Source: an uncultured Candidatus Saccharibacteria bacterium (lineage in GTDB: Bacteria > Patescibacteriota > Minisyncoccia > Minisyncoccales > CAZUZH01). Taken from it: DNA of 64,000 nucleotides. Positions 1-59,194 of the stretch are shown here, piece by piece. The stretch lies in assembly GCA_964624815.1 (NCBI GenBank), contig CAZUZH010000001.1:1090-65089 (forward strand), read 5' to 3'. The translations under genes and the position numbers were made by a program. Numbering within the stretch: position 1 is the stretch's first letter; each line of letters opens with the position of its first letter. Under the pieces are notes generated by a model that made no database searches, was not told the origin of the DNA, and saw only the letters and a list, made by a program, of their open reading frames with translations.

Positions 1-77
1 TATACAATAAGTTTTATAAAATACTAAATAGGAGATAATATAATACTATCTTGTTACTCCACATTAATAAAACATAT

Positions 78-113
78 GTAATAGATATATTGCTATAGCA
101 ATATATCTATTAC
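78..113. terminator. Perfect 16-bp-stem palindrome (gtaatagatatattgc-tata-gcaatatatctattac) just downstream of the minus-strand tRNA-Arg; candidate terminator or REP-like hairpin
   Basis: Perfect inverted repeat read directly. The flanks are only weakly U-rich, so terminator function is uncertain. Confidence 0.3.
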
Positions 114-125
114 ATTAGTTATGTG

Positions 126-199
126 TGCCCCCAGTAGGATTCGAGCCTACAACCTCCGCGTCCGAAGCGCGGCGCTCTATCCAGTTGAGCTACAGGGGC
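126..199 (-). tRNA. tRNA-Arg (anticodon UCG)
   Basis: The reverse complement folds as a cloverleaf. Acceptor is GCCCCUG/UGGGGGC with two G.U pairs, the D-arm has A20, anticodon stem is CCGCG/CGCGG with loop CUUCGGA (anticodon UCG), T-arm GUAGG-CUCGAAU-CCUAC, discriminator A. No CCA is encoded. Confidence 0.85.
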
Positions 200-201
200 T
201 T

Positions 202-476
202 AGGGATGCAGGATGCGAACTATCATCAATTTAGCAAAGCCAATTTGAGCCATATTCAAGGCGCGAGGAGCGATGCGATGCCGGAGTGCATCGTGAGCGA
301 CCGAGCAACGCAGAAGATGGCTCAAATTTGCCTGCCCGAAGGGAAGCGAAATTATGGGCCAATTTCTTTGTTACTCCTCCTCAATGGGCTATAAATAGCC
401 CAATTTCGTCGTAGTGCCTTGAACTTGACCCATTCTTTTGCTTCTAAAGCTGATGATAGTTCGCATCCTGCATCCC
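202..476 (-). ncRNA. tmRNA-like structured RNA, short paralog (ssrA-like), separated by 2 nt (UA) from tRNA-Arg on the same strand
   Basis: The minus-strand transcript starts GGGAUGCAGGAUGCGAACUAUCAUCA and ends UGAUGAUAGUUCGCAUCCUGCAUCCC, a 26-nt perfect terminal complementarity. Its 5' end resembles the tmRNA D-analog (GGAUNCGA) and its 3' end is T-arm-like. It is collinear with the 56572-57117 RNA through shared blocks, with compensatory changes. The T-loop analog has C at the A58 position and the acceptor has G3:C70. Confidence 0.5.
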
Positions 477-482
477 AACATT

Positions 483-510
483 ATTATACTAAAAATTTGA
501 AAAAAATCAA
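483..510 (-). promoter_or_regulatory. sigma70-like promoter (TTGATT-16 nt-TATAAT) placing the TSS at the 5' G of the 202-476 RNA
   Basis: On the minus strand TTGATT sits at 510-505 and TATAAT at 488-483, with 6 nt before the GGGAUG 5' end. Confidence 0.45.
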
Positions 511-532
511 ATTTTGAGATAGAATAAGTTTA

Positions 533-1981
533 ATGATTATACCAAAAGAAGTAAAATCTGTTTTGGAAAAATTGCGGAAAAAGAAGCACGAAGCTTACAT
601 TGTCGGAGGTTGTGTTCGGGATGCTTTAAGGGGCTTTGAACCTTTGGATTGGGATGTAGCAACAAATGCCAAGCCGGAAGAAATTACAAAGATTTTCCCA
701 AAAAGTTTTGCCGACAATAAATTCGGCACAGTAACAGTTTTAACTAAGAGCAAAGATAAACCACTAAAGGAAGTTGAAATAACGCCTTTTAGAACAGAGG
801 AAAAATACACTGATAAAAGGCATCCAGATAAAGTTGAATGGGCAAAGACCATTAAAGAGGATTTGAGTCGTCGGGACTTTACAATAAACGCAATTGCTAT
901 GGATCTTGATGGAAATATTATTGATCATTTCAATGGCAAAAAAGATTTGGAAAAGAAAATTATCCGGGCAGTTGGCAAAGCAGAGGATAGATTTTCTGAA
1001 GACGCTTTAAGAATGCTCAGGGCAGTCAGGTTTGCAACTACCTTGAACTTTAAAATTGAGGAAAAAACATCAAAGGCAATTGAGAAAAATGCTTTTTGGC
1101 TTCAAGCAATTTCCCACGAGAGAATAAGAGACGAGTTTTTAAAGATCGTTATGGCTGATAAGCCGTCAAGCGGAATTGAGCTTTTGCGCAAATTAGGACT
1201 TTTGAAATATATTATTCCGGAATTGGAAGAAAATTACGGAGTGGGACAGAACAAGCATCATATTTATGATTGTTATGAGCATGCTCTTCGTTCTTTGGAA
1301 TACGCTGCAAAGAAGAAATTTAACAGTGATGTTAGATTAGCTTCGCTTTTTCATGACATTGGAAAGCCTCGTTCCAAGCGGGGCGAGGGTAAGGATTCCA
1401 CTTTTTACGGCCATGAGGTTGTGGGAGCCAGGATGACGGCCCGTATTTTGAACCGGTTAAGATTTTCCAAAAAAGATATTGAAAAAATTGTAAAACTTGT
1501 AAGATATCATTTATTTTACTATAATGTTGACGAAGTTTCCGAGTCTTCGGTTAGAAGGTTGGTTCGCCAGGCAGGACCGGAAAATATGGATGAGTTGTTG
1601 CAGGTGCGTATGGCTGACCGGATTGGGTCTGGAGTGCCAAAAGCTGAACCATATAAACTGCGTCATCTTCGTTATATTATTGAAAAAGTTAGCCAGGATC
1701 CGATTTCTGCTAAAAAATTAAAAATAAGCGGCGATGACATAATGAAGATTTTAAAGATTAAGCCGGGACCGAAAATCGGAGATGTTTTAGATATTTTACT
1801 GGGATATGTTTTGTCTGACCCAAAAAAGAACAAAAAAGATTTTCTGGAAAGAAAAACCAAAGAATTAGGCAAATTAGAGGACGGAAAATTAAAAGCTCTT
1901 GCAGAAAATGCCAGAATAGAAAGAAATGATATTGAAACCAAAAAAGATGAAATGACCAAAAAGAAATATTGGGTAACGTGA
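533..1981 (+). CDS. cca: CCA-adding tRNA nucleotidyltransferase with HD phosphohydrolase domain
   Basis: GGCVRD nucleotidyltransferase motif, then an HD domain (FHDIGKP), then a lysine/glutamate-rich C-terminal tail. Consistent with the tRNA genes here lacking encoded CCA. Confidence 0.8.
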   Translation: MIIPKEVKSVLEKLRKKKHEAYIVGGCVRDALRGFEPLDWDVATNAKPEEITKIFPKSFADNKFGTVTVLTKSKDKPLKEVEITPFRTEEKYTDKRHPDKVEWAKTIKEDLSRRDFTINAIAMDLDGNIIDHFNGKKDLEKKIIRAVGKAEDRFSEDALRMLRAVRFATTLNFKIEEKTSKAIEKNAFWLQAISHERIRDEFLKIVMADKPSSGIELLRKLGLLKYIIPELEENYGVGQNKHHIYDCYEHALRSLEYAAKKKFNSDVRLASLFHDIGKPRSKRGEGKDSTFYGHEVVGARMTARILNRLRFSKKDIEKIVKLVRYHLFYYNVDEVSESSVRRLVRQAGPENMDELLQVRMADRIGSGVPKAEPYKLRHLRYIIEKVSQDPISAKKLKISGDDIMKILKIKPGPKIGDVLDILLGYVLSDPKKNKKDFLERKTKELGKLEDGKLKALAENARIERNDIETKKDEMTKKKYWVT

Positions 1982-2001
1982 TCATAAAACATAAAACAAA
2001 A

Positions 2002-2072
2002 CGGGCTATAGTGTAATGGTAGCACGAGTTCTTCGGGAGAATTTAGTTCCGGTTCAAATCCGGATAGCCCGA
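2002..2072 (+). tRNA. tRNA-Pro (anticodon CGG)
   Basis: Cloverleaf with C1:G72 and A73 (bacterial proline identity), anticodon stem AGUUC/GAAUU, loop UUCGGGA (anticodon CGG), T-arm UCCGG-UUCAAAU-CCGGA. Confidence 0.8.
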
Positions 2073-2156
2073 ATAGAAAAAGATGCCGTGAGCGGTCTCT
2101 TTTTCCTTTTTTATTGGGGGATTTTTAAATTATTTTATTTTTGCTATACTGATATT

Positions 2157-3287
2157 ATGAAAAAAATTATTTTTATTATTTTTGTTTTGGCTTTTGCGGC
2201 GGGTGTTTTTAATTTTGCTTTAGCTCAAGAAGAACCTCAAGTTGACATCAGCTTTTTTTATGGCGAAACTTGTCCTCACTGCTCAGCAGAGCAGAAGTTT
2301 TTAGACGCAATGGAAAAAAAATACCCCAACCTTGAAATAAAAAGATATTCGCTTAATGAACCAAAAGCCATTGAGCTTTTGAAAGATTTGTGTAAAAAAT
2401 GTGAATCTGAAAAGTATTTGGGATTAGTTCCTCTGACTTTTATTGGCGATAATTTTTTTCTTGGTTTTGACAATGAAAACGGGATGGGAAGACAAATTGA
2501 AGATTATATACAAAGACATATGGAAAGTGCGGAGAAACCAGAAGAAGATAAAGAGAAAATCCAACTGCCAATCATTGGAGAAATAGATGTTGGCGAATAT
2601 TCTCTGCCAATTTTAGCTGTTGTTTTAGGGACATTAGACGGGTTTAATGTTTGTTCTCTTGGCGCTTTGGTTTTAATTTTAGGTTTGGTTTTAACTATTC
2701 GCTCCCGTAAGAAAATTATTCTTTTCGGCGGACTTTTTATATTAACAACTGCTGTAGTTTATGGCATTTTAATTTTTCTTTGGCATCAGCTTTTTTCCCT
2801 TTTAGCTCCTTATATTAGGCTCATGGAGATTTTGATAGGATTTTTAGGACTTGGTGGAGGAATTTATTTCTTAAAGCAGTTTATTAAATACCAAAAACAC
2901 GGACCGGCTTGTGAAGCCGGTTTTGGGCAAAAAATAGCTTCTAAATTTTCCCAGAAACTTCAAAAATTTTTTGGAACTAGAGATATCTTTGCGATAATTA
3001 GTTTGGTTTTTCTATTTGCCGTTATTATCACTATTGTTGAGTTTCCTTGTTCCGCTGTAATTCCGGTTATTTTCGCCGGTATTGTTGCCAAAGCCGACTT
3101 AGCGTTTTTAAACTATCTTCTAATAATTTCCCTTTTTGTTCTTTTCTATATGCTGGATGAGCTAATTGTTTTTTTAATCGCCGCTTACAAAATGACTCTT
3201 TGGATTAGTTCTGGAAAATTTATTGTTTGGATTACTCTTATTGAAGCAATCGCTTTGTTTTTATTGGGATTTTACTATTTGTTGTAA
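2157..3287 (+). CDS. Membrane thiol:disulfide oxidoreductase. Signal peptide plus thioredoxin-fold domain (CPHC) fused to a DsbD/CcdA-like multi-pass membrane domain
   Basis: The start was moved to M48 of the track ORF because the upstream part overlaps tRNA-Pro. ETCPHC redox motif. Multiple TM helices with conserved Cys (NVCSLGAL, EFPCSAV). Confidence 0.5.
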   Translation: MKKIIFIIFVLAFAAGVFNFALAQEEPQVDISFFYGETCPHCSAEQKFLDAMEKKYPNLEIKRYSLNEPKAIELLKDLCKKCESEKYLGLVPLTFIGDNFFLGFDNENGMGRQIEDYIQRHMESAEKPEEDKEKIQLPIIGEIDVGEYSLPILAVVLGTLDGFNVCSLGALVLILGLVLTIRSRKKIILFGGLFILTTAVVYGILIFLWHQLFSLLAPYIRLMEILIGFLGLGGGIYFLKQFIKYQKHGPACEAGFGQKIASKFSQKLQKFFGTRDIFAIISLVFLFAVIITIVEFPCSAVIPVIFAGIVAKADLAFLNYLLIISLFVLFYMLDELIVFLIAAYKMTLWISSGKFIVWITLIEAIALFLLGFYYLL

Positions 3288-3337
3288 ATAGCAATGTTTG
3301 TTTTTACCTCAAAAAATGCTAAAATAAAATTGATTTC

Positions 3338-3408
3338 GGGCTTGTAGTATAATGGCATTACACCGCATTCGCATTGCGGAAATGCGAGTTCGATTCTCGC
3401 CGAGTCCA
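3338..3408 (+). tRNA. tRNA-Ala (anticodon CGC)
   Basis: G3:U70 wobble and A73 (alanine identity elements), anticodon stem CCGCA/UGCGG, loop UUCGCAU, T-arm GCGAG-UUCGAUU-CUCGC. Confidence 0.85.
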
Positions 3409-5572: not shown

Positions 5573-5625
5573 CCTGTACAGCGGTTGGACATTTTTAGCA
5601 AACGATCGTTTACTAAAAATGTCCA
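5573..5625. repeat. REP-like palindromic element, copy A (cctgtacagcggttggacatttttagcaaacgatcgtttactaaaaatgtcca)
   Basis: 52 of 53 nt identical to 24042-24094. Core palindrome GCAAACGA-T-CGTTTGC, shared with 19137-19172. Confidence 0.6.
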
Positions 5626-5713
5626 GCATGGGTTTTTTCGAAAAAGGAGCTAATCTCCTTTTTTAATTTCTCAAGAGCAACCTTTGAGAAAAATTGAATT
5701 TTCTGAATTAATT

Positions 5714-19567: not shown

Positions 19568-19690
19568 ATCGATGCTAATATACAATGGATACTAATGATA
19601 CGAATATATTGTTCCGAGTCAAAACAAGGTAAACCGATTCCATTAGTATAATTAGTATGAATTAGTATGAATTAGTATGAATTAGTATAT
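19568..19690 (-). repeat. ~104-nt repeat module R1, a direct repeat of 19893-19994. Contains TTGACT-16 nt-TATCAT plus 10-mer tandem (attagtatga)x3. Ends 3 nt before the rplT start
   Basis: About 95% identity to R2. Confidence 0.5.
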
Positions 19691-19892: not shown

Positions 19893-19994
19893 ATCGATGC
19901 TAATATACGAATGGATACTAATGATACGAATATATTGTTCCGAGTCAAAACAAGGTAAACTGATTCCATTAGTATAATTAGTATGAATTAGTAT
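19893..19994 (-). repeat. Repeat module R2, with the same promoter-like content as R1. Ends 3 nt before the rpmI ATG
   Basis: Direct repeat of R1. Confidence 0.5.
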
Positions 19995-20515: not shown

Positions 20516-20956
20516 AGTTTTTTAATTTTACTATGTGGAGGTGAAGGGCTTTGAACCCTTATCCAAAAGGTTTACCAAAATACTTCTACAGAGTTAGTTT
20601 GTTTTATTTTTTTTCAGAATGCTATATAGAAAACAAACAAAAATTATAGTTTCCAAAGCCTTTTTGTTTCTAACAATTTCTCAAGGCATTGAAATTGTCT
20701 ATCCTAACGACATGACATCAGTACTACCCATTAGGAATCAGCAGTATTGACGCCTACTTAGGCGTAAGCGTAAGCAGGAGCTAAATTTTTAGCATTTGCA
20801 ATTATGTTTTCCTTAAAGTTTTACGAGATTTAAGGATACTCGCTCTGCATATTTTAGCTCAACCTTCTGTCGAGTCTATGCACCCCCATATTTATCTGTC
20901 TTCGGAAGGAGTTTTTAATTTTTAATAAATTTTCAATTTTATAATCTTCAAATAAT

Positions 20957-23204: not shown

Positions 23205-23828
23205 ATGAATAATAATTATTTTCTTTTGCGGCACGGGGAAGCTTTATCCAATCAAAAAATGATAAGTTCTTGCTGGCCGGAAAAATTTATTAATCCTTTA
23301 ACTAAAAAAGGGAAACAAGAAGCAAGAGAAGCGGGTTTGAAATTAAAAGATAAGAAAGTTGACCCTGTTAGAGATTACGGGAACAAAAATAAAACGCGTA
23401 GAGGGCAAATCTCTAACGGGGTTGATTTAATTTTCACCTCCGATCTTTTAAGGACAAAACAGACGGCCGAGATTGTCGGAAAAGAAATAGGCATTAAGCC
23501 AAAACCGGACAAAAGATTAAGAGAATATAATACTGGAATTTTTAACGGAGGGTCATTACATAAGTTTAGAGAAGTTTTTAAGAAAGAACAAGAAAGATGG
23601 AAAAAGAAACCTGTTAAGGGAGAAACTTATACTGATATAACTAAAAGAATGTATGATTTTTTTCAGGATATTGATAAAAAATATTCCAACAAAAACATCC
23701 TTATAATCAGCCATCAGCTTCCCCTTATACTGTTGGAAGGAAAGGTTAAAGGTTATTCCCAAAAGGGAATTTTAGAAAAATTTCCCAAAGGAAAAAGAAT
23801 CCAAACCGGCGAAGTTAAGCAATTATAA
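23205..23828 (+). CDS. histidine phosphatase family protein (phosphoglycerate mutase-like)
   Basis: LLRHGEALSNQ catalytic RHG motif. Confidence 0.65.
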   Translation: MNNNYFLLRHGEALSNQKMISSCWPEKFINPLTKKGKQEAREAGLKLKDKKVDPVRDYGNKNKTRRGQISNGVDLIFTSDLLRTKQTAEIVGKEIGIKPKPDKRLREYNTGIFNGGSLHKFREVFKKEQERWKKKPVKGETYTDITKRMYDFFQDIDKKYSNKNILIISHQLPLILLEGKVKGYSQKGILEKFPKGKRIQTGEVKQL

Positions 23829-24041: not shown

Positions 24042-24094
24042 CCTGTACAGCGGTTGGACATTTTTAGCAAACGATCGTTTGCTAAAAATGTCCA
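24042..24094. repeat. REP-like palindromic element, copy B
   Basis: 52 of 53 nt identical to 5573-5625. Followed by the same TGATAAGAT-6 nt-ATG arrangement. Confidence 0.6.
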
Positions 24095-24189
24095 ATATTG
24101 GTTTCTTTAAAAAATGAGTTAAGCTCCTTTTTCTGTATCTGCGGGAAAATTAAATTGAATTATTAGGATTAATCTGATAAGATAAAAAT

Positions 24190-27100
24190 ATGATAGATTT
24201 TCCAAAAACTGAAGAAAAAATATTAAAATTCTGGAAAGAAAAGAAGATTTTTGAAAAAAGCCTTAAAAAGACAAAAAAAGGCAAACGGTTTGTTTTTTTT
24301 GAAGGACCGCCTTTTGCTAATGGGTTGCCCGGAATTCATCATCTTTTGTCCCGGGCCTTCAAAGATGTAATTCTCCGTTATAAGACAATGCAGGGCTTTT
24401 CTGTTGAAAGAAAGGCTGGTTGGGATACGCATGGTTTGCCAACGGAAATGGAGGCGGAAAAAAAACTGGGAATTAAATCTAAAAAAGACATAGAGAAAAT
24501 CGGGATTAAGAAATTTATTGAAACATGCCAAAATAGTGTTTTCACTTACAAAAAAGAATGGGAAGAATTTACAGAACGAATTGGTTTTTGGCTTGACTTA
24601 AAAAATGCTTATATCACCTGTAGTAATGGTTATATTGAGAGTTTATGGTGGATTTTAAAAAAGGTTTGGCAAAAAGGACTTTTATACCAAGATTATAAGG
24701 TTGTTCCTTATTGTCCGAGATGCGGAACCTCGCTTTCTTCCCATGAGGTCGCCCAGGGATATAAGAAAATAACTGAAGAATCAATCACGGTTAAATTTGA
24801 ATTAGCTGATGAACCGGGAATATATATTTTGGTTTGGACCACCACGCCTTGGACATTGCCCGGTAATGTTGCCTTAGCAGTCAATCCTGCTATAGTTTAT
24901 GTTAAATTTTCTTTAAAGAATTATCCTGGAATTTCTGATGGGATTTATATAACTTCAAAAAAGGACTTTGATAATTATAAAAAGGAGATAGAAAAAGCTA
25001 AATCTAAAAAGGGAGCCGGAGTAGAAATTTTAGAGCAGACTAAAGGAAAAGATTTAATCGGAAAGAAATACAAACCCCTTTATCCTAATAGAGCGCCTTA
25101 TAAAATAATTGGAGCTGATTTTGTTTCAAATAAAGAGGGCACTGGAGTTGTTCATATTGCTCCGGCTTTTGGCGAAGACGATATGAAAGCTGGTAAAGAA
25201 AATAATTTACCAGTTCTTACTACGGTAGATGAACAGGGCAGAATGTTAACAAAAGATTATCCCTGGAATGGAAAATTTATAAAAGAAGCTGATCCGCTTA
25301 TTACTCAAGATTTAAAAAATAGAGATTTAATTTTTCATACCGAGGACTATGAACACGACTATCCCTTTTGCTGGCGCTGCGACAGCCCATTGTTGTATTA
25401 CGCTAAAACCTCTTGGTTTATTAAAATGTCAAGTTTGAGAAAAAAACTGCTTGAGAACAATAAAAAAATTAATTGGATACCAAATTATCTAAAAGCGGGC
25501 CGTTTTGGCGAATGGTTAAGAGAAATTAAAGACTGGAATTTGTCCCGAGAAAGATTTTGGGGAACGCCTTTGCCGATTTGGAAATGCCAAATCGGCAAAA
25601 GTCAAAAGTCAAAAGTCAAAAGTCAAAAGTATTGCGACAATATTAAAGTTATTGAGTCAATCAAAGAATTAGAAAAATTAAGCGGGAAGAAAATTAAAGA
25701 TTTACATCGGCCATATATTGATGAAATAACTTTCAAGTGTGAAAAGTGTGGAGGGCAGATGAAGCGAATTCCCGAAGTGGCTGACTGCTGGTTTGATTCT
25801 GGTTCAATGCCTTATGCTCAATGGCATTATCCTTTTGACCCCGATATTATATCCTCGCAGAGCTCGGATAACTACGTGGCAAGAAACAAAGAATTATCAA
25901 TTCCGTTGCCAAAGAATTTTCCAGCTGATTTTATATGCGAGGGCATTGACCAGACCAGAGGCTGGTTTTATACTTTGTTGGCCGTTTCTACTCTTTTAGA
26001 ACTAGAACCAGCCTATAAAAATGTTATTTCTCACGGAATTGTTTTAGACGCAAAGGCGCAGAAAATGTCAAAATCAAAAGGTAATATTGTTTTGCCCAAA
26101 GATGTTATTGATAAATGGGGCGCTGACTGCGCGCGATTCTATTTTTACACAATAAATTCAGTAGGAGAACCTAAGAGGTTTGACATTAAAGATGTTCAAG
26201 AGATTTCGCGGCGATTTTTCGGAACCTTGTGGAACTGCTGGATATTTTTTTCTACTTATACCCCGTTAGAGATTAATGGATTTCAGCAAAAGCGCAGAGA
26301 AAACAAACCTCTAACGGGGTATAGTGATAAAAGTTTTAAACCTAAAAAAGGTTTTGAATCTAAGAGTTTGCTTGATTGCTGGATTATTTCTCGTTTCCAT
26401 AATCTTTGTAAGCAAGTGATAGAGGATTTAGATAGATATTATGTGGTAGAAGCAGCCAGGCTTTTTGAAGACTTTGTTGATGATTTGTCTAATTGGTATA
26501 TTCGGCGATCTCGCCGGAGATTTCAAAAATCTGAAAACAACAAAGAAAAAGAAGGAGCGTGTCAAACCCTTTATTATGTTTTGTTAAATCTAAGTAAACT
26601 AATAGCTCCATTTACTCCATTTATTAGCGAGGAAATTTATCAAGGATTAAAGACTAAAGATTCAGTTCACCTTTGCGATTACCCCAAGCCAAATAAAAAA
26701 TTAATTAATAAAGAACTGGAAGAACGAATGAAGCAGGTTCGGGAGATAGTAACCATAGGTTTAGCTCATCGGTCCGAAGCCGGAATAAAGGTAAGGCAAC
26801 CCCTTTCTATGCTCAAAATCCCAATGGCTAAATCCCAAATTCCAAATGAAATGTTGGAATTAATAAAAGAAGAAGTAAATGTTAAGAAAATAATTGGGGG
26901 CAAGAAAATAGAATTAAATACTAAAATCACACCTAAATTAAAGGAAGAAGGAATAATTAGAGAGGTTATCCGGAATATTCAAACAATGCGGAAAAGGGCT
27001 GGATATATTCCAAAAGACAGGATTTTAGTTCAGGTTTCTTGCAACCCTGATTTAGAGAAAATTATAAAGAAAAATAAAAATTTAATTCTGAAAGAAACCC

Positions 27101-38238: not shown

Positions 38239-38384
38239 AATTAACCTAATTATTCTAATTAACCTAATTAACCTAATCAATGTCTAAATCCCAATACCCA
38301 ATGACTAAAATGATTGATACATTAGACATTTTGTCATTGGGATTTGATTAGAAATTAGAAATTAGAAATTAGAAATCGAAAATT
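38239..38384. repeat. Composite intergenic repeat X: aattaacctaattattctaatta, then inverted copies of the AATCCCAATACCCAATGAC unit, then (gaaatta)n heptamers. Abuts the tatD ATG
   Basis: A 25-nt identical block and related architecture are found at 59013-59194. Confidence 0.55.
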
Positions 38385-55943: not shown

Positions 55944-56522
55944 TTAATTAAATTCACTCATTGCTTTTTCAATTCCCTGCCTTAAACTTGTTTCAATTGC
56001 TTTAACTATTTTCTGGAGAGTTTGCTTCAAGATTTTCTTTTCGTCTCTTGTGAATTTTTTGAGAACAAATTTTTTTTCAATCAGTTTGTAATGTTCGTAC
56101 GACGAGACGATAGGCCTAATTCCAATTCGGAAGCGGACAAAATCTTTTGTTCCCAAGTTTTCAATAATTGATTTAATTCCATTGTGGCCAGCTGGACCTC
56201 GGTTTTTAACAATTTTAATTTTGCCTATTTCTAAATCTAAATCATCGTGAACAACCCAAACATTTGACATTTGACATTTGACATTTGACATAATTTTCTT
56301 TACTGTCCTGCCCGATTCATTCATATAGGTCTGGGGTTTGGCTAAAATCACTTCATCGCTATCCCAAAACTTTTTAGAAATTTCAGCATTAAATTTTTTG
56401 GAAAACTTAAATTCAAGAAAATCATTTTCCTTAGCAAATTCATCAATTATTGTAAATCCAAGATTATGCCGCGTCTTGTCAAATTTTTTCCCCGGATTGC
56501 CTAATCCAATAATTAGTGTCAT
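55944..56522 (-). CDS. pth: peptidyl-tRNA hydrolase
   Basis: The start was moved to MTLIIGLGNPG. Conserved His/Asn region. Carries the in-frame (atgtcaa)n insertion at 56261-56291. Confidence 0.85.
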   Translation of the reverse strand: MTLIIGLGNPGKKFDKTRHNLGFTIIDEFAKENDFLEFKFSKKFNAEISKKFWDSDEVILAKPQTYMNESGRTVKKIMSNVKCQMSNVWVVHDDLDLEIGKIKIVKNRGPAGHNGIKSIIENLGTKDFVRFRIGIRPIVSSYEHYKLIEKKFVLKKFTRDEKKILKQTLQKIVKAIETSLRQGIEKAMSEFN

Positions 56523-56558
56523 GATTATATTATAGCACTCTTGCATAATTAAAAAAAA

Positions 56559-56564
56559 TATAAT
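56559..56564 (+). promoter_or_regulatory. TATAAT -10 hexamer 7 nt upstream of the tmRNA 5' end
   Basis: Read directly. The same geometry is found at the 202-476 paralog. Confidence 0.4.
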
Positions 56565-56571
56565 ACAATAA

Positions 56572-57117
56572 GGGGGACGGGATTCGAAATAGAGTCAGCT
56601 TTAGAAGCGAAAGAATGGGTTAAGTTTAGTGCTCTATCTGCGAATATAACATTGGACTGGAAGCTCAAAATTAAGCGAGGTCAAGGAGCGACGACGAAAG
56701 TGTGCTTGAAAAGCACATTGAGGAGGAGCAACACAGAGATCTCTTAATTTTGAGCTTCCCCAAAGGGGCCAGGATATTTTTCCTTCTGGCGTTGTTGCTC
56801 GTCGCTTATGTGCCTAAGGGCACACTGCGCTCTTCGCGCCTAGCCAGAAGAAAAAATCTCTCTGGCCAGTACAGTGTTATGTTCGCAGAGAGAACACCAG
56901 GCACGACGACGAAGGAGTATTAGAACCTAATACTTCAAGGAGGAGTGACGAAGAAATTAGCCCATTCTTTCGCTTCCCTTCGGGCGGGCGAATTCGGGCA
57001 ATCTTCTGCGTTGCTCGTCGCTTATGTATCGCAGAGGATACACTGCTCTCGCTTGCGCCTTGAATATTGCCCGAATTCGCTCCGCTAAATTGATTCTGGT
57101 TCGAATCCCGTCCCCCA
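56572..57117 (+). ncRNA. ssrA: tmRNA (ssrA)-like RNA, 546 nt, with an internally duplicated ~230-nt module
   Basis: The 5' end GGGGGACGGGAUUCGAA resembles the tmRNA acceptor plus D-analog. The 3' end UCUGGUUCGAAUCCCGUCCCCCA is T-arm, acceptor, A73. The 5' and 3' ends are complementary. smpB is present in the window. Atypical: G3:C70 rather than G3:U70, and no clear ALAA-type tag. Confidence 0.6.
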
Positions 57118-57125
57118 AGAACAAT

Positions 57126-57677
57126 ATGAACAAAATAATACACTTTATCTGGGAATTAGTCAAAATTATTGTAATTACCCTTGTGATTGTTTTGCCAATC
57201 CGCTATTTTTTATTTCAGCCATTTATTGTACGGGGTCAGTCAATGGAGCCCACCTTTCAAAACAGTGATTATTTAATCATTGACGAAATATCTTATCGGT
57301 TCCAAGATCCCCAAAGAGGAGAGGTGGTGGTTTTCAAGTCTTTAAACAATTCTTATTATTTAATTAAAAGAGTTGTTGCTCTTCCAGGTGAAACAATAGA
57401 AATAAAAGATGGTCAGGTAATAGTCTATAATCATGATAACTTCCATGGTAAAATTTTAGATGAAAAAGATTATCTTTCTTCTGATTTTATTGAAACGCCT
57501 GGAAATATAAAAATAGCCTTGTCTCAAGACGAATATTTTGTTTTAGGGGATAATCGTTCAGCATCATATGATTCCAGGCGCTGGGGTCCGCTTCAGAAAG
57601 AAAATATAATCGGTAAAGTTTTTATAAGAGCCTGGCCTCTAAACACATTAGCCAAATTTCAATTGCCGATTTATTAA
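57126..57677 (+). CDS. lepB: signal peptidase I
   Basis: SMEPTF (catalytic Ser) and GDNRSASYDSRRWG motifs. The start was moved out of the tmRNA overlap. Confidence 0.8.
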   Translation: MNKIIHFIWELVKIIVITLVIVLPIRYFLFQPFIVRGQSMEPTFQNSDYLIIDEISYRFQDPQRGEVVVFKSLNNSYYLIKRVVALPGETIEIKDGQVIVYNHDNFHGKILDEKDYLSSDFIETPGNIKIALSQDEYFVLGDNRSASYDSRRWGPLQKENIIGKVFIRAWPLNTLAKFQLPIY

Positions 57678-59012: not shown

Positions 59013-59194
59013 CCAATTAACCTAATTATTCTAATTAGTATAATTTCACCCCGTTAGAAAATCAAAGATTTCTAACGGGGCAAGAATCCCAATGACGAAA
59101 TGTCTAATGTCTAAATAGTTTTGGTCATTGTGTATTGGGATTTTGGCATTGATTAGGTCAATTAGATTAATTAGAATAATTAGAAATTTTCATT
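59013..59194. repeat. Composite intergenic repeat Y, related to 38239-38384. Includes the hisS terminator hairpin ccccgttagaaa...tttctaacgggg and inverted AATCCCAATGAC units. Abuts the HIT ATG
   Basis: The 25-nt block ccaattaacctaattattctaatta is identical to X. Confidence 0.55.

Follow-up and report, generated by a model that had tools for sequence, protein, structure and literature searches.

Miniature inverted-repeat transposable element (MITE)-like repeats of bacteria, such as Correia/NEMIS, ERIC, RUP and the Rickettsia palindromic elements, are small, non-coding and multicopy, carry terminal inverted repeats, reside in intergenic spacers and sometimes in RNA genes, form a long hairpin whichever strand is transcribed, and are present or absent at a site among relatives. 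rRNA intervening sequences (IVS) lie inside rRNA genes as extended stems in variable regions, and the HEARO motif (IscB omega RNA), an ornate structure of ~300 nt with many copies per genome, mostly without an adjacent open reading frame (ORF), was first noticed as a multicopy mobile motif. Here we analyse a stretch of 64,000 nt (the window) from an uncultured Candidatus Saccharibacteria bacterium (GCA_964624815.1, contig CAZUZH010000001.1), in which a structured unit on the minus strand, at 203-476, probably represents one copy of a family of structured, non-coding and protein-less mobile elements in Patescibacteria and Omnitrophota, sharing with MITE-like repeats all the features listed above. 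An earlier note on this DNA had taken the unit for a transfer-messenger RNA (tmRNA)-like gene, paralogous to an ssrA-like gene 56 kb away.

The Patescibacteria and the Omnitrophota are very large lineages, for the most part uncultured, whose genomes are tiny and whose rRNA genes are rich in insertions, many of them unclassified; unclassified short rRNA insertions are reported to be common in bacteria of the candidate phyla radiation (CPR) (PMC11270868). Through the family described below, some of the rRNA insertions are linked to a repeat that occurs genome-wide, at operon junctions and transcription starts as well, and its precise, searchable fold could be useful for annotation and binning. 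It also raises the question of how a ~270-nt sequence without protein, fixed termini or target duplication, yet with a conserved branched core, has spread across phyla.

Fold and family of the element

As the earlier note stated, bases 203-228 and 451-476 form a perfect 26-nt inverted repeat, seen both by the repeat finder and in the sequence itself; the helix reaches ~33 bp with one bulge, and by our own estimate, which is not a tool output, such a repeat within 300 nt would occur by chance ~1e-8 times in 64 kb. The minimum free energy (MFE) of the small copy gives z = -13.4 against shuffled sequence, and the family profile scores 222 bits on 206-473(-), over model positions 4-265. With this copy as its first row, alignment A1 comprises 55 members of mutual identity <88%, for which the RNAalifold consensus contains 88 pairs, 76 of them with compensatory changes. 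In the refined structure 90.6% of cells are paired, compared with 72.6% after shuffling of columns and 33-44% when each partner is slid; double changes occur in 79 of 105 pairs, and the covariation score of 0.491 (0.170 when shuffled) was reached in none of 500 shuffles.

The fold has four parts, namely P1, arm A, P3 and arm B, with P1 closing a junction that bears two ~100-nt arms (exactly 100 nt each in the small window copy) and a CCC/GGG hairpin. P1 (~30 bp) pairs the exact ends of the unit and is free in sequence, its complementarity being kept throughout. Compensatory changes in this terminal helix, already noticed in the small and large window copies, proved general across the family; the second helix proposed with them, GCAAAG/CUUUGC, is not in the family consensus, its bases belonging to P2 and to the base of P4. 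Arm A begins with P2, which a small internal loop separates from P2b (2 bp); beyond P2b a purine-rich stretch leads to hairpin P2a. Arm B mirrors this order, a loop following P4 and a pyrimidine-rich loop connecting P4b (2 bp) to hairpin P4a. The arm-A column pair 74/118 and the arm-B pair 224/276 covary independently, so that P2b and P4b are intra-arm helices and a pairing of the GC dinucleotides and their flanks between the arms is ruled out. The variants ACGAgGAA and GAcGAGGAG co-occur, which supports a pair C81-G111 within arm A; an inter-arm CGACGA:UCGUCG pairing was rejected because the arm-A C-to-G variants are compensated inside arm A and not in arm B. Since these covariants support a C-G pair, GACGACGAA/UGAGGAGGA may be read as three repeats of G.A, A.G and C-G. 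Strand by strand, the arm-B tip (UCGUCG / CUCCUC) complements that of arm A, the arm tips are near-invariant across phyla, and a pairing between the lower loops of the arms, as AAGGC:GCCUU and AACG:CGUU, is possible, if weakly supported.

A three-block pattern derived from the window copies and searched in species-representative genomes returned 115 stretches, 113 of them true and two false, the latter in GC-rich coding DNA. The 113 loci belong to about 60 species genomes and hold units of ~265-290 nt with the terminal helix; many copies in the family are truncated, as judged by the profile. A second pattern, anchored on arm B only and searched in metagenomes, returned at least 120 stretches, and among the matches listed 111 were confirmed by the family profile, the three-block pattern was satisfied by only 41 of 99 full-length members, and the arm-A motifs GACGACGAA and GAGGAGGAG were almost invariant. 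Conservation of these motifs is thus not a search artefact, given that they are near-invariant under a pattern that specifies arm B only. Hosts include Patescibacteria of many classes and Omnitrophota, among them the complete genome of Ca. Velamenicoccus archaeovorus LiM, together with two metagenome-assembled genomes (MAGs) of Fidelibacterota and a small number of MAGs with possible placeholder labels. P1 helices of CPR-type copies retain the core GGAUUCGAACC/GGUUCGAAUCC and carry CUCCU at the 3' side, and Omnitrophota-type ends read UACUGAG...GGAGGCUCAGUA.

The family is absent from Rfam 15. At gathering threshold the whole window gave only tRNA and ssrA, elsewhere, and at E<=10 the element loci gave chance matches only; no description of the element was found in the literature on CPR rRNA insertions, CPR MITEs, structured RNAs of Parcubacteria and Omnitrophota, or Velamenicoccus. 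Carriage by phages or plasmids was considered and rejected, as IMG/VR viral contigs gave no match to the three-block pattern and BLAST gave none in phage or plasmid collections. The LiM copy (L083:2131-2499, about 1,026,131-1,026,499 of NZ_CP019384) and that at L012:5571-5894 are orthologous, with flanks 96% identical; they differ by one compensatory A-U to G-C change in hairpin P4a, and the LiM copy has a 45-nt tandem duplication within its P3 loop insert. LiM has a complete genome and a metatranscriptome, mentioned as published in a paper citing it (PMC13153191), and these data make expression and processing of the element directly testable.

In the paired columns 86% of cells are Watson-Crick, and G.U exceeds A.C (191 versus 112, ~4% versus ~2.4% of paired cells), a 1.7-fold lean to the strand named in the earlier note. 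Typical RNA genes are far more one-sided in G.U versus A.C. Turned into its reverse complement, a unit retains 20-70 bits with the family profile, and the fold is maintained on both strands, close to strand-symmetric. The element is non-coding, because stop-free lengths are alike on both strands (the longest stretch averages 66 codons sense and 67 antisense). Frames of 85-105 codons exist antisense in several copies, and antisense protein coding was rejected in view of these equal lengths and of the many copies with stops. A partner protein (transposase, reverse transcriptase or nuclease) was rejected as well, since all-against-all clustering of flanking ORFs, which covered the 113 loci with their flanks rather than whole genomes, gave only element-overlapping frames and unrelated housekeeping genes.

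Insertion sites in the window and beyond

The features of the two window loci are collected in Table 1. On the minus strand, promoter, element, tRNA-Arg and terminator follow one another in series. The -35 and -10 boxes reported earlier at 510-483 were recovered; the spacer to tRNA-Arg, given as U-A, is really UAA (200-202), ARAGORN setting the tRNA at 125-199. This promoter is that of tRNA-Arg and predates the element, because homologous -10 boxes precede tRNA-Arg in relatives without the element. With a promoter-like site at its 5' side and tRNA-Arg just past its 3' end, the element may plausibly be co-transcribed with tRNA-Arg and separated from it by an RNase P cut at tRNA +1. Its G+C content of 48.5%, against 35% for the window, makes it a G+C island. 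tRNA-Arg and the CCA-enzyme gene have a common compact divergent promoter region, and an encoded CCA end is absent in three of the four window tRNA genes (Arg, Pro and Leu).

Table 1. Positions of the element units and adjoining features in the window
Feature	Position	Strand	Basis and remarks
Small unit of element, complete in this assembly	203-476	-	274 nt; profile, MFE, alignment A1
P1 5' arm, terminal helix	444-476	-	Repeat finder and fold; double compensatory changes in all 29 P1 pairs
P1 3' arm, terminal helix; includes T-loop look-alike GUUCGCAUCC	203-234	-	Fold; motif base-paired
Arm A (P2, 2-bp P2b, purine-rich non-canonical stretch, cap hairpin P2a)	344-443	-	Consensus fold
Arm A non-canonical stretch	ACGACGAA at 405-412 opposite GAGGAGGAG at 374-382	-	
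P3, CCC-loop-GGG hairpin at junction	335-343	-	Invariant GCUUCCC...GGG; 98% of cells paired
Arm B (P4, 2-bp P4b, pyrimidine-rich internal loop, cap hairpin P4a)	235-334	-	Consensus fold
Arm B internal loop	CUCGGUCGCU at 296-305 opposite CGCUCCUCGCGCC at 260-272	-	
Promoter-like TTGATT-16-TATAAT	483-510	-	10/12 positions match, 16-nt spacing; 6 nt upstream of element
tRNA-Arg(TCG)	125-199	-	ARAGORN and Rfam; 3 nt (UAA) downstream of element
Terminator-like perfect hairpin and T-run	76-115	-	Closes promoter-element-tRNA unit
Outer unit, 5' part (P1 5' arm and start of arm A)	56572-56627	+	Profile positions 4-55
Inner unit, own P1, inside outer arm A, same orientation	56628-56898	+	271 nt; profile 56654-56856, 125 bits
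Outer unit, 3' part (remainder of arm A, then P3, arm B and the 3' arm of P1)	56899-57117	+	Profile positions 56-264, 180 bits

Sites without the element were found for both loci. The order tRNA-Arg(TCG)(-), CCA-adding enzyme, tRNA-Pro(CGG), tRNA-Ala(CGC), which spans 125-3408 in the window, is kept in four relatives (L248-L251; CCA enzyme 77-79% identical) whose tRNA-Arg site is empty, with tRNA-Arg +1 sitting 7-8 nt (20 nt in L248) past a TATAAT-like box. The lepB site is empty in three further relatives (L252-L254) with the order pth(-), lepB, hisS, where the pth-lepB spacers of 57, 139 and 179 nt, against 603 nt in the window, lack the large locus in its whole length of 546 nt; in the closest of them (L254), the flank is almost base-for-base equal until the insertion is reached, 7 nt beyond a TATAAT box. 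The family profile found nothing at E<=10 on the empty sites of L248-L254. Comparison with these sites shows both window loci to be insertions, the small copy between the -10 box and the +1 of tRNA-Arg and the large locus 7 nt after the lepB -10 box, and excising 203-476 in silico leaves TATAAT-AATGTT-TAA-tRNA. Furthermore, contigs of the same genome in other samples (L116, L117) have identical flanks and a deletion of bases 226-321 (96 nt, most of arm B), flanked by the short repeats TCAATTT and TCAAATTT; since these contigs are otherwise identical, an intact small copy is dispensable.

The small unit is homologous to 56572-57117, and the collinearity claimed for the two loci holds, the repeat finder giving one block of 80 nt (88%) and two of 57 nt (81%). 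The large locus, with two profile scores of 125 and 180 bits and a fold of z = -14.4 against shuffled sequence, is not an ssrA-like gene and is instead a complete unit holding a second unit, which enters at model position 55/56 as a clean nested insertion. ACAATA is a possible flanking duplication here, and in other samples the contigs that belong to the window organism are broken within this locus. A related strain (L122:560-760, JGI Ga0315538_1016513) has the same nested arrangement upstream of lepB, with a TTGACA-17-TAGAAT promoter ~25 nt upstream; its outer P1 arm differs and its upstream sequence does not match the window, which suggests recombination between copies or a mosaic assembly.

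Several MAGs have pattern matches at 6-8 loci per genome, often at contig ends, and the repeat breaks assemblies. Copies sit exactly between L6 and L18, between a Mur ligase (murF by position) and MraY, and between UppS and CdsA, in either orientation, and one, identified from the translated flank, lies between rplB and rpsS; among the flank-inspected loci, none interrupts a protein-coding frame. Twelve copies lie inside mature 16S/23S genes, all antisense to the rRNA, with L074, L090 and L128 among the loci whose rRNA genes bear copies, at points that we take to be helix tips, e.g. the 16S helix-10 region and 23S helix 25; others are in rRNA spacers, and the rRNA-spacer and operon copies occur in both orientations. 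One rRNA operon (L090, JAUYKI010000004.1) contains three antisense copies, of which two are in the 23S gene and the third is in the spacer upstream. Copies inside rRNA genes share an arm-B variant of their own, CGCGUCGCGAAUCU, a possible sign of a subfamily. In one Omnitrophota genome, five of six copies stop 0-2 nt before an ATG, and removal of three of them restores a leaderless-type -10-to-ATG spacing. The suggestion of a new tRNA-linked RNA family holds for its novelty, there being no Rfam 15 match, and fails for the linkage, which was rejected as a family rule because only 6 of 91 copies lie <=50 nt from a tRNA.

The window also contains other repeats. Two 85-nt direct repeats (19584-19668 and 19910-19994), 99% identical and 326 nt apart, lie a few hundred bases past the ssrA 3' end and could be attachment-site remnants of an integrated element, because ssrA is a common integration site. 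A 91-nt repeat (5573-5663 and 24042-24132, 89% identical) forms a second, unrelated family, in which a 41-nt near-perfect palindrome, TTGGACATTTTTAGCAAACGATCGTTTrCTAAAAATGTCCA, is followed by a terminator-like AAAAAGGAGCT..CTCCTTTTT hairpin. Inverted repeats of 99 nt (38246-38344 and 59085-59183), 89% complementary and 20.7 kb apart, contain short tandem units of the AATTAACCTAATT type. A hairpin reading ACCCyGTTAGAG...CTCTAACGGGGT is present both at 23362-23422 and at 26260-26320; the CTCTAACGGGGT motif is also found downstream of the element in a Harrisonbacteria locus (L079), and the hairpin may be a terminator or repeat motif common to these bacteria.

Weighing the explanations

We regard a structured mobile element as the probable explanation. 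The unit is short, non-coding and multicopy, has terminal inverted repeats, and is present or absent at orthologous sites, as expected of a MITE; the earlier note had held that near-identical copies elsewhere in the genome with transposon-like target duplications would point to one, and multiple copies, a nested unit and empty sites were indeed found, without a consistent target duplication. The small copy would be transcribed as a 274-nt 5' leader of pre-tRNA-Arg, from which RNase P, cutting at tRNA +1, would release it and leave the tRNA functional. Since the helices are so largely Watson-Crick, P1 and the arms could form on whichever strand is transcribed, so that the insert would be an autonomous rod, which RNase III or another RNase specific for double strands might trim from host transcripts, and such a trimmable rod would be tolerated at operon junctions, 5' ends and rRNA helix tips. 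The conserved two-arm core would be the target of a trans-acting mobilisation or processing factor, and the invariant arm tips may serve this factor, intermolecular RNA-RNA pairing or catalysis.

Several observations weigh against this explanation. There is no consistent target-site duplication, as flanking direct repeats are like those of shuffled pairings and only isolated duplications occur (6 bp in L103, 8 bp in L023), and no mobilising protein was found at the 113 loci, in the form of an internal ORF, a conserved neighbour or a phage or plasmid match. Some complete genomes (L074, L083) have only one match each, by the pattern only and with no search for divergent copies. A simple model of a harmless rod, indifferent to orientation, does not predict that the 12 copies in mature rRNA should be antisense without exception. 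An excess of -10 boxes just upstream is not significant family-wide and is equal on both sides; a preference for sites after a -10 box, 2.8-fold in a smaller set, did not hold in the larger set, and promoter-proximal placement may be survivorship rather than targeting, because upstream -10 boxes are no commoner than background. Finally, arm tips that are unpaired or non-canonical and near-invariant across phyla, together with the compensatory change between orthologous copies, exceed what ordinary MITEs display, so that a host-useful RNA also fits.

Such an RNA could belong to a trans-acting structured non-coding RNA gene family (scaffold, sponge or self-assembling RNA), spread by duplication and horizontal transfer and represented in the window by three paralogues. 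The very strong covariation, the arm tips that stay invariant where the search pattern does not demand it, the compensatory change just mentioned, the G+C-rich island, which resembles RNA genes in A+T-rich genomes, the G.U excess on the sense strand, and the promoter-like sites found 5' of several Omnitrophota copies as well as of the two in the window would all suit it. Nevertheless, it is unlikely, because the promoters predate the element, being present at empty sites; copies occur in both orientations in operons, and the antisense ones in rRNA genes would give no sense RNA from the host promoter; one copy is nested in another, a one-arm-deleted variant exists in wild populations, many copies are truncated, and G.U over A.C is near strand-symmetric. 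Far less credible still, and very improbable indeed, is the proposal of the earlier note that the RNA could be a duplicate of ssrA that has degenerated, or else a decoy of tRNA or tmRNA character for SmpB or alanyl-tRNA synthetase; it was rejected. The genuine ssrA of this genome lies at 20533-20887 (-), scores 141.7 bits with the Rfam tmRNA model and encodes the tag ANAKNLAPAYAYA followed by a stop (ARAGORN and Rfam), whereas ARAGORN found no tmRNA at either element locus, reporting a tag frame for 20533-20887 only, and in scans of 1-700 and 56400-57300, run with permissive filters and a cut-off of E<=10, neither element locus matched any of 4227 Rfam families, tmRNA and tRNA included. The 5' GGGGGACGGGAUUCGAA and 3' GGUUCGAAUCCCGUCCCCCA of the large copy superficially resemble tmRNA termini, but such terminus-like strings (GGAUUCGAA... 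/ ...UUCGAAUCC) are opposite strands of one long, continuous and covarying helix. What had been called a T-loop analog is one P1 strand, which varies at T-loop invariant positions among family members (GUUCGUAUCC, GUUUGAAUCC and similar), the opposite strand compensating, and Omnitrophota members are wholly without the look-alike. A structured nucleic-acid element paralogous to the 56-kb locus, with compensatory changes, is what survives of that proposal, and the tmRNA-like identity does not.

The RNA might instead process itself like a ribozyme or intron, P1 joining the boundaries and the arm tips forming an active site for excision, ligation or reverse insertion. P1 brings the exact unit ends together in every copy, insertion into essential operons and rRNA is tolerated, and no protein partner was found. 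Natural hairpin ribozymes are laid out as a four-way junction with two arms bearing conserved internal motifs, and the junction of the element, with its two motif-bearing arms, recalls that layout. Yet the Rfam ribozyme and intron models gave no match at E<=10, protein-coding frames were never seen interrupted, the helices are near strand-symmetric, and the uniformly antisense copies in mature rRNA are the opposite of what self-splicing needs, so that we consider this quite improbable. Equally poor are the prospects of a domesticated cis-acting cassette, which would bring with it stop codons and a processing helix, at times also a Shine-Dalgarno sequence, and would regulate or insulate its flanks like REP/BIME or ERIC: its 200-nt conserved core is unnecessary for such roles and relatives manage without the element at the same sites, even though element ends adjoin the stop codon of the preceding gene and the start codon of the following one, as in the Omnitrophota genome with five of six copies ending just before an ATG. 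Omnitrophota ends, read from the sequences, give on either strand a TGA pointing inward and a GGAGG pointing outward; these features are lineage-specific, the 3' side in CPR-type copies being CUCCU, not GGAGG. For the mobile element that we prefer, a bolder version, rather unlikely though worth keeping in mind, is that the pseudo-symmetric two-arm core is itself active as RNA or single-stranded DNA, i.e. a ribozyme, guide-like or self-assembling module that would direct its own excision and insertion and would have crossed between Patescibacteria and Omnitrophota without an encoded protein.

Comparison with known systems

All that recalls tmRNA is a 5' end rich in G and a 3' string resembling UUCGAAUCC, in copies of the CPR type, and the element differs from tmRNA in having no tRNA-like domain, tag ORF, pseudoknots or model match. 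From REP/REPIN repeats, which are palindrome doublets of 20-40 nt with a RAYT gene, it differs in size and architecture; no Y1-transposase-like neighbour was seen at the loci, whole genomes not being searched. Group I and II intron models did not match the window copies at E<=10, and at gathering threshold the only intron match in eight rRNA loci is a group I intron (L091:2793-3040) that overlaps no copy and lies in the 23S gene of a Harrisonbacteria MAG. A SAM riboswitch was identified by Rfam in a Yanofskybacteria MAG (L088:2826-2931). For the IS110 bridge RNA there is no model match, and no IS110 recombinase was found among conserved neighbours. HEARO and its omega RNA also gave no model match at E<=10, no HNH/IscB or TnpB gene is nearby, and the 5' and 3' ends of the element pair together, leaving no room for a flanking guide.

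ROOL, GOLLD, OLE and raiA likewise combine strong covariation with no known function and are sometimes near tRNA genes. ROOL, GOLLD and OLE form homo-oligomers (PMC12286853), and by analogy the complementary arm tips of the element could in principle pair between molecules. In contrast to these RNAs, the element has no model match, is smaller, pseudo-symmetric and near strand-symmetric, and is inserted and lost.

The closest likeness is to a structured MITE or an rRNA intervening sequence. Like IVS, the 12 copies inside rRNA genes form extended stems in variable regions; unlike IVS, the element occurs also at operon junctions and promoter-proximal sites genome-wide and has a conserved two-arm core, its removal by RNase III would be a prediction of the model, and the window copies are not in rRNA. 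MITEs differ in their fixed-length target duplication and parent insertion sequence, neither of which was found for the element at the 113 loci, as distinct from whole genomes. Compared with MITE-like repeats, the terminal repeat of the element is conserved as pairing and not as sequence, and it encloses a 200-nt branched, covarying core with near-invariant motifs that are common to different phyla.

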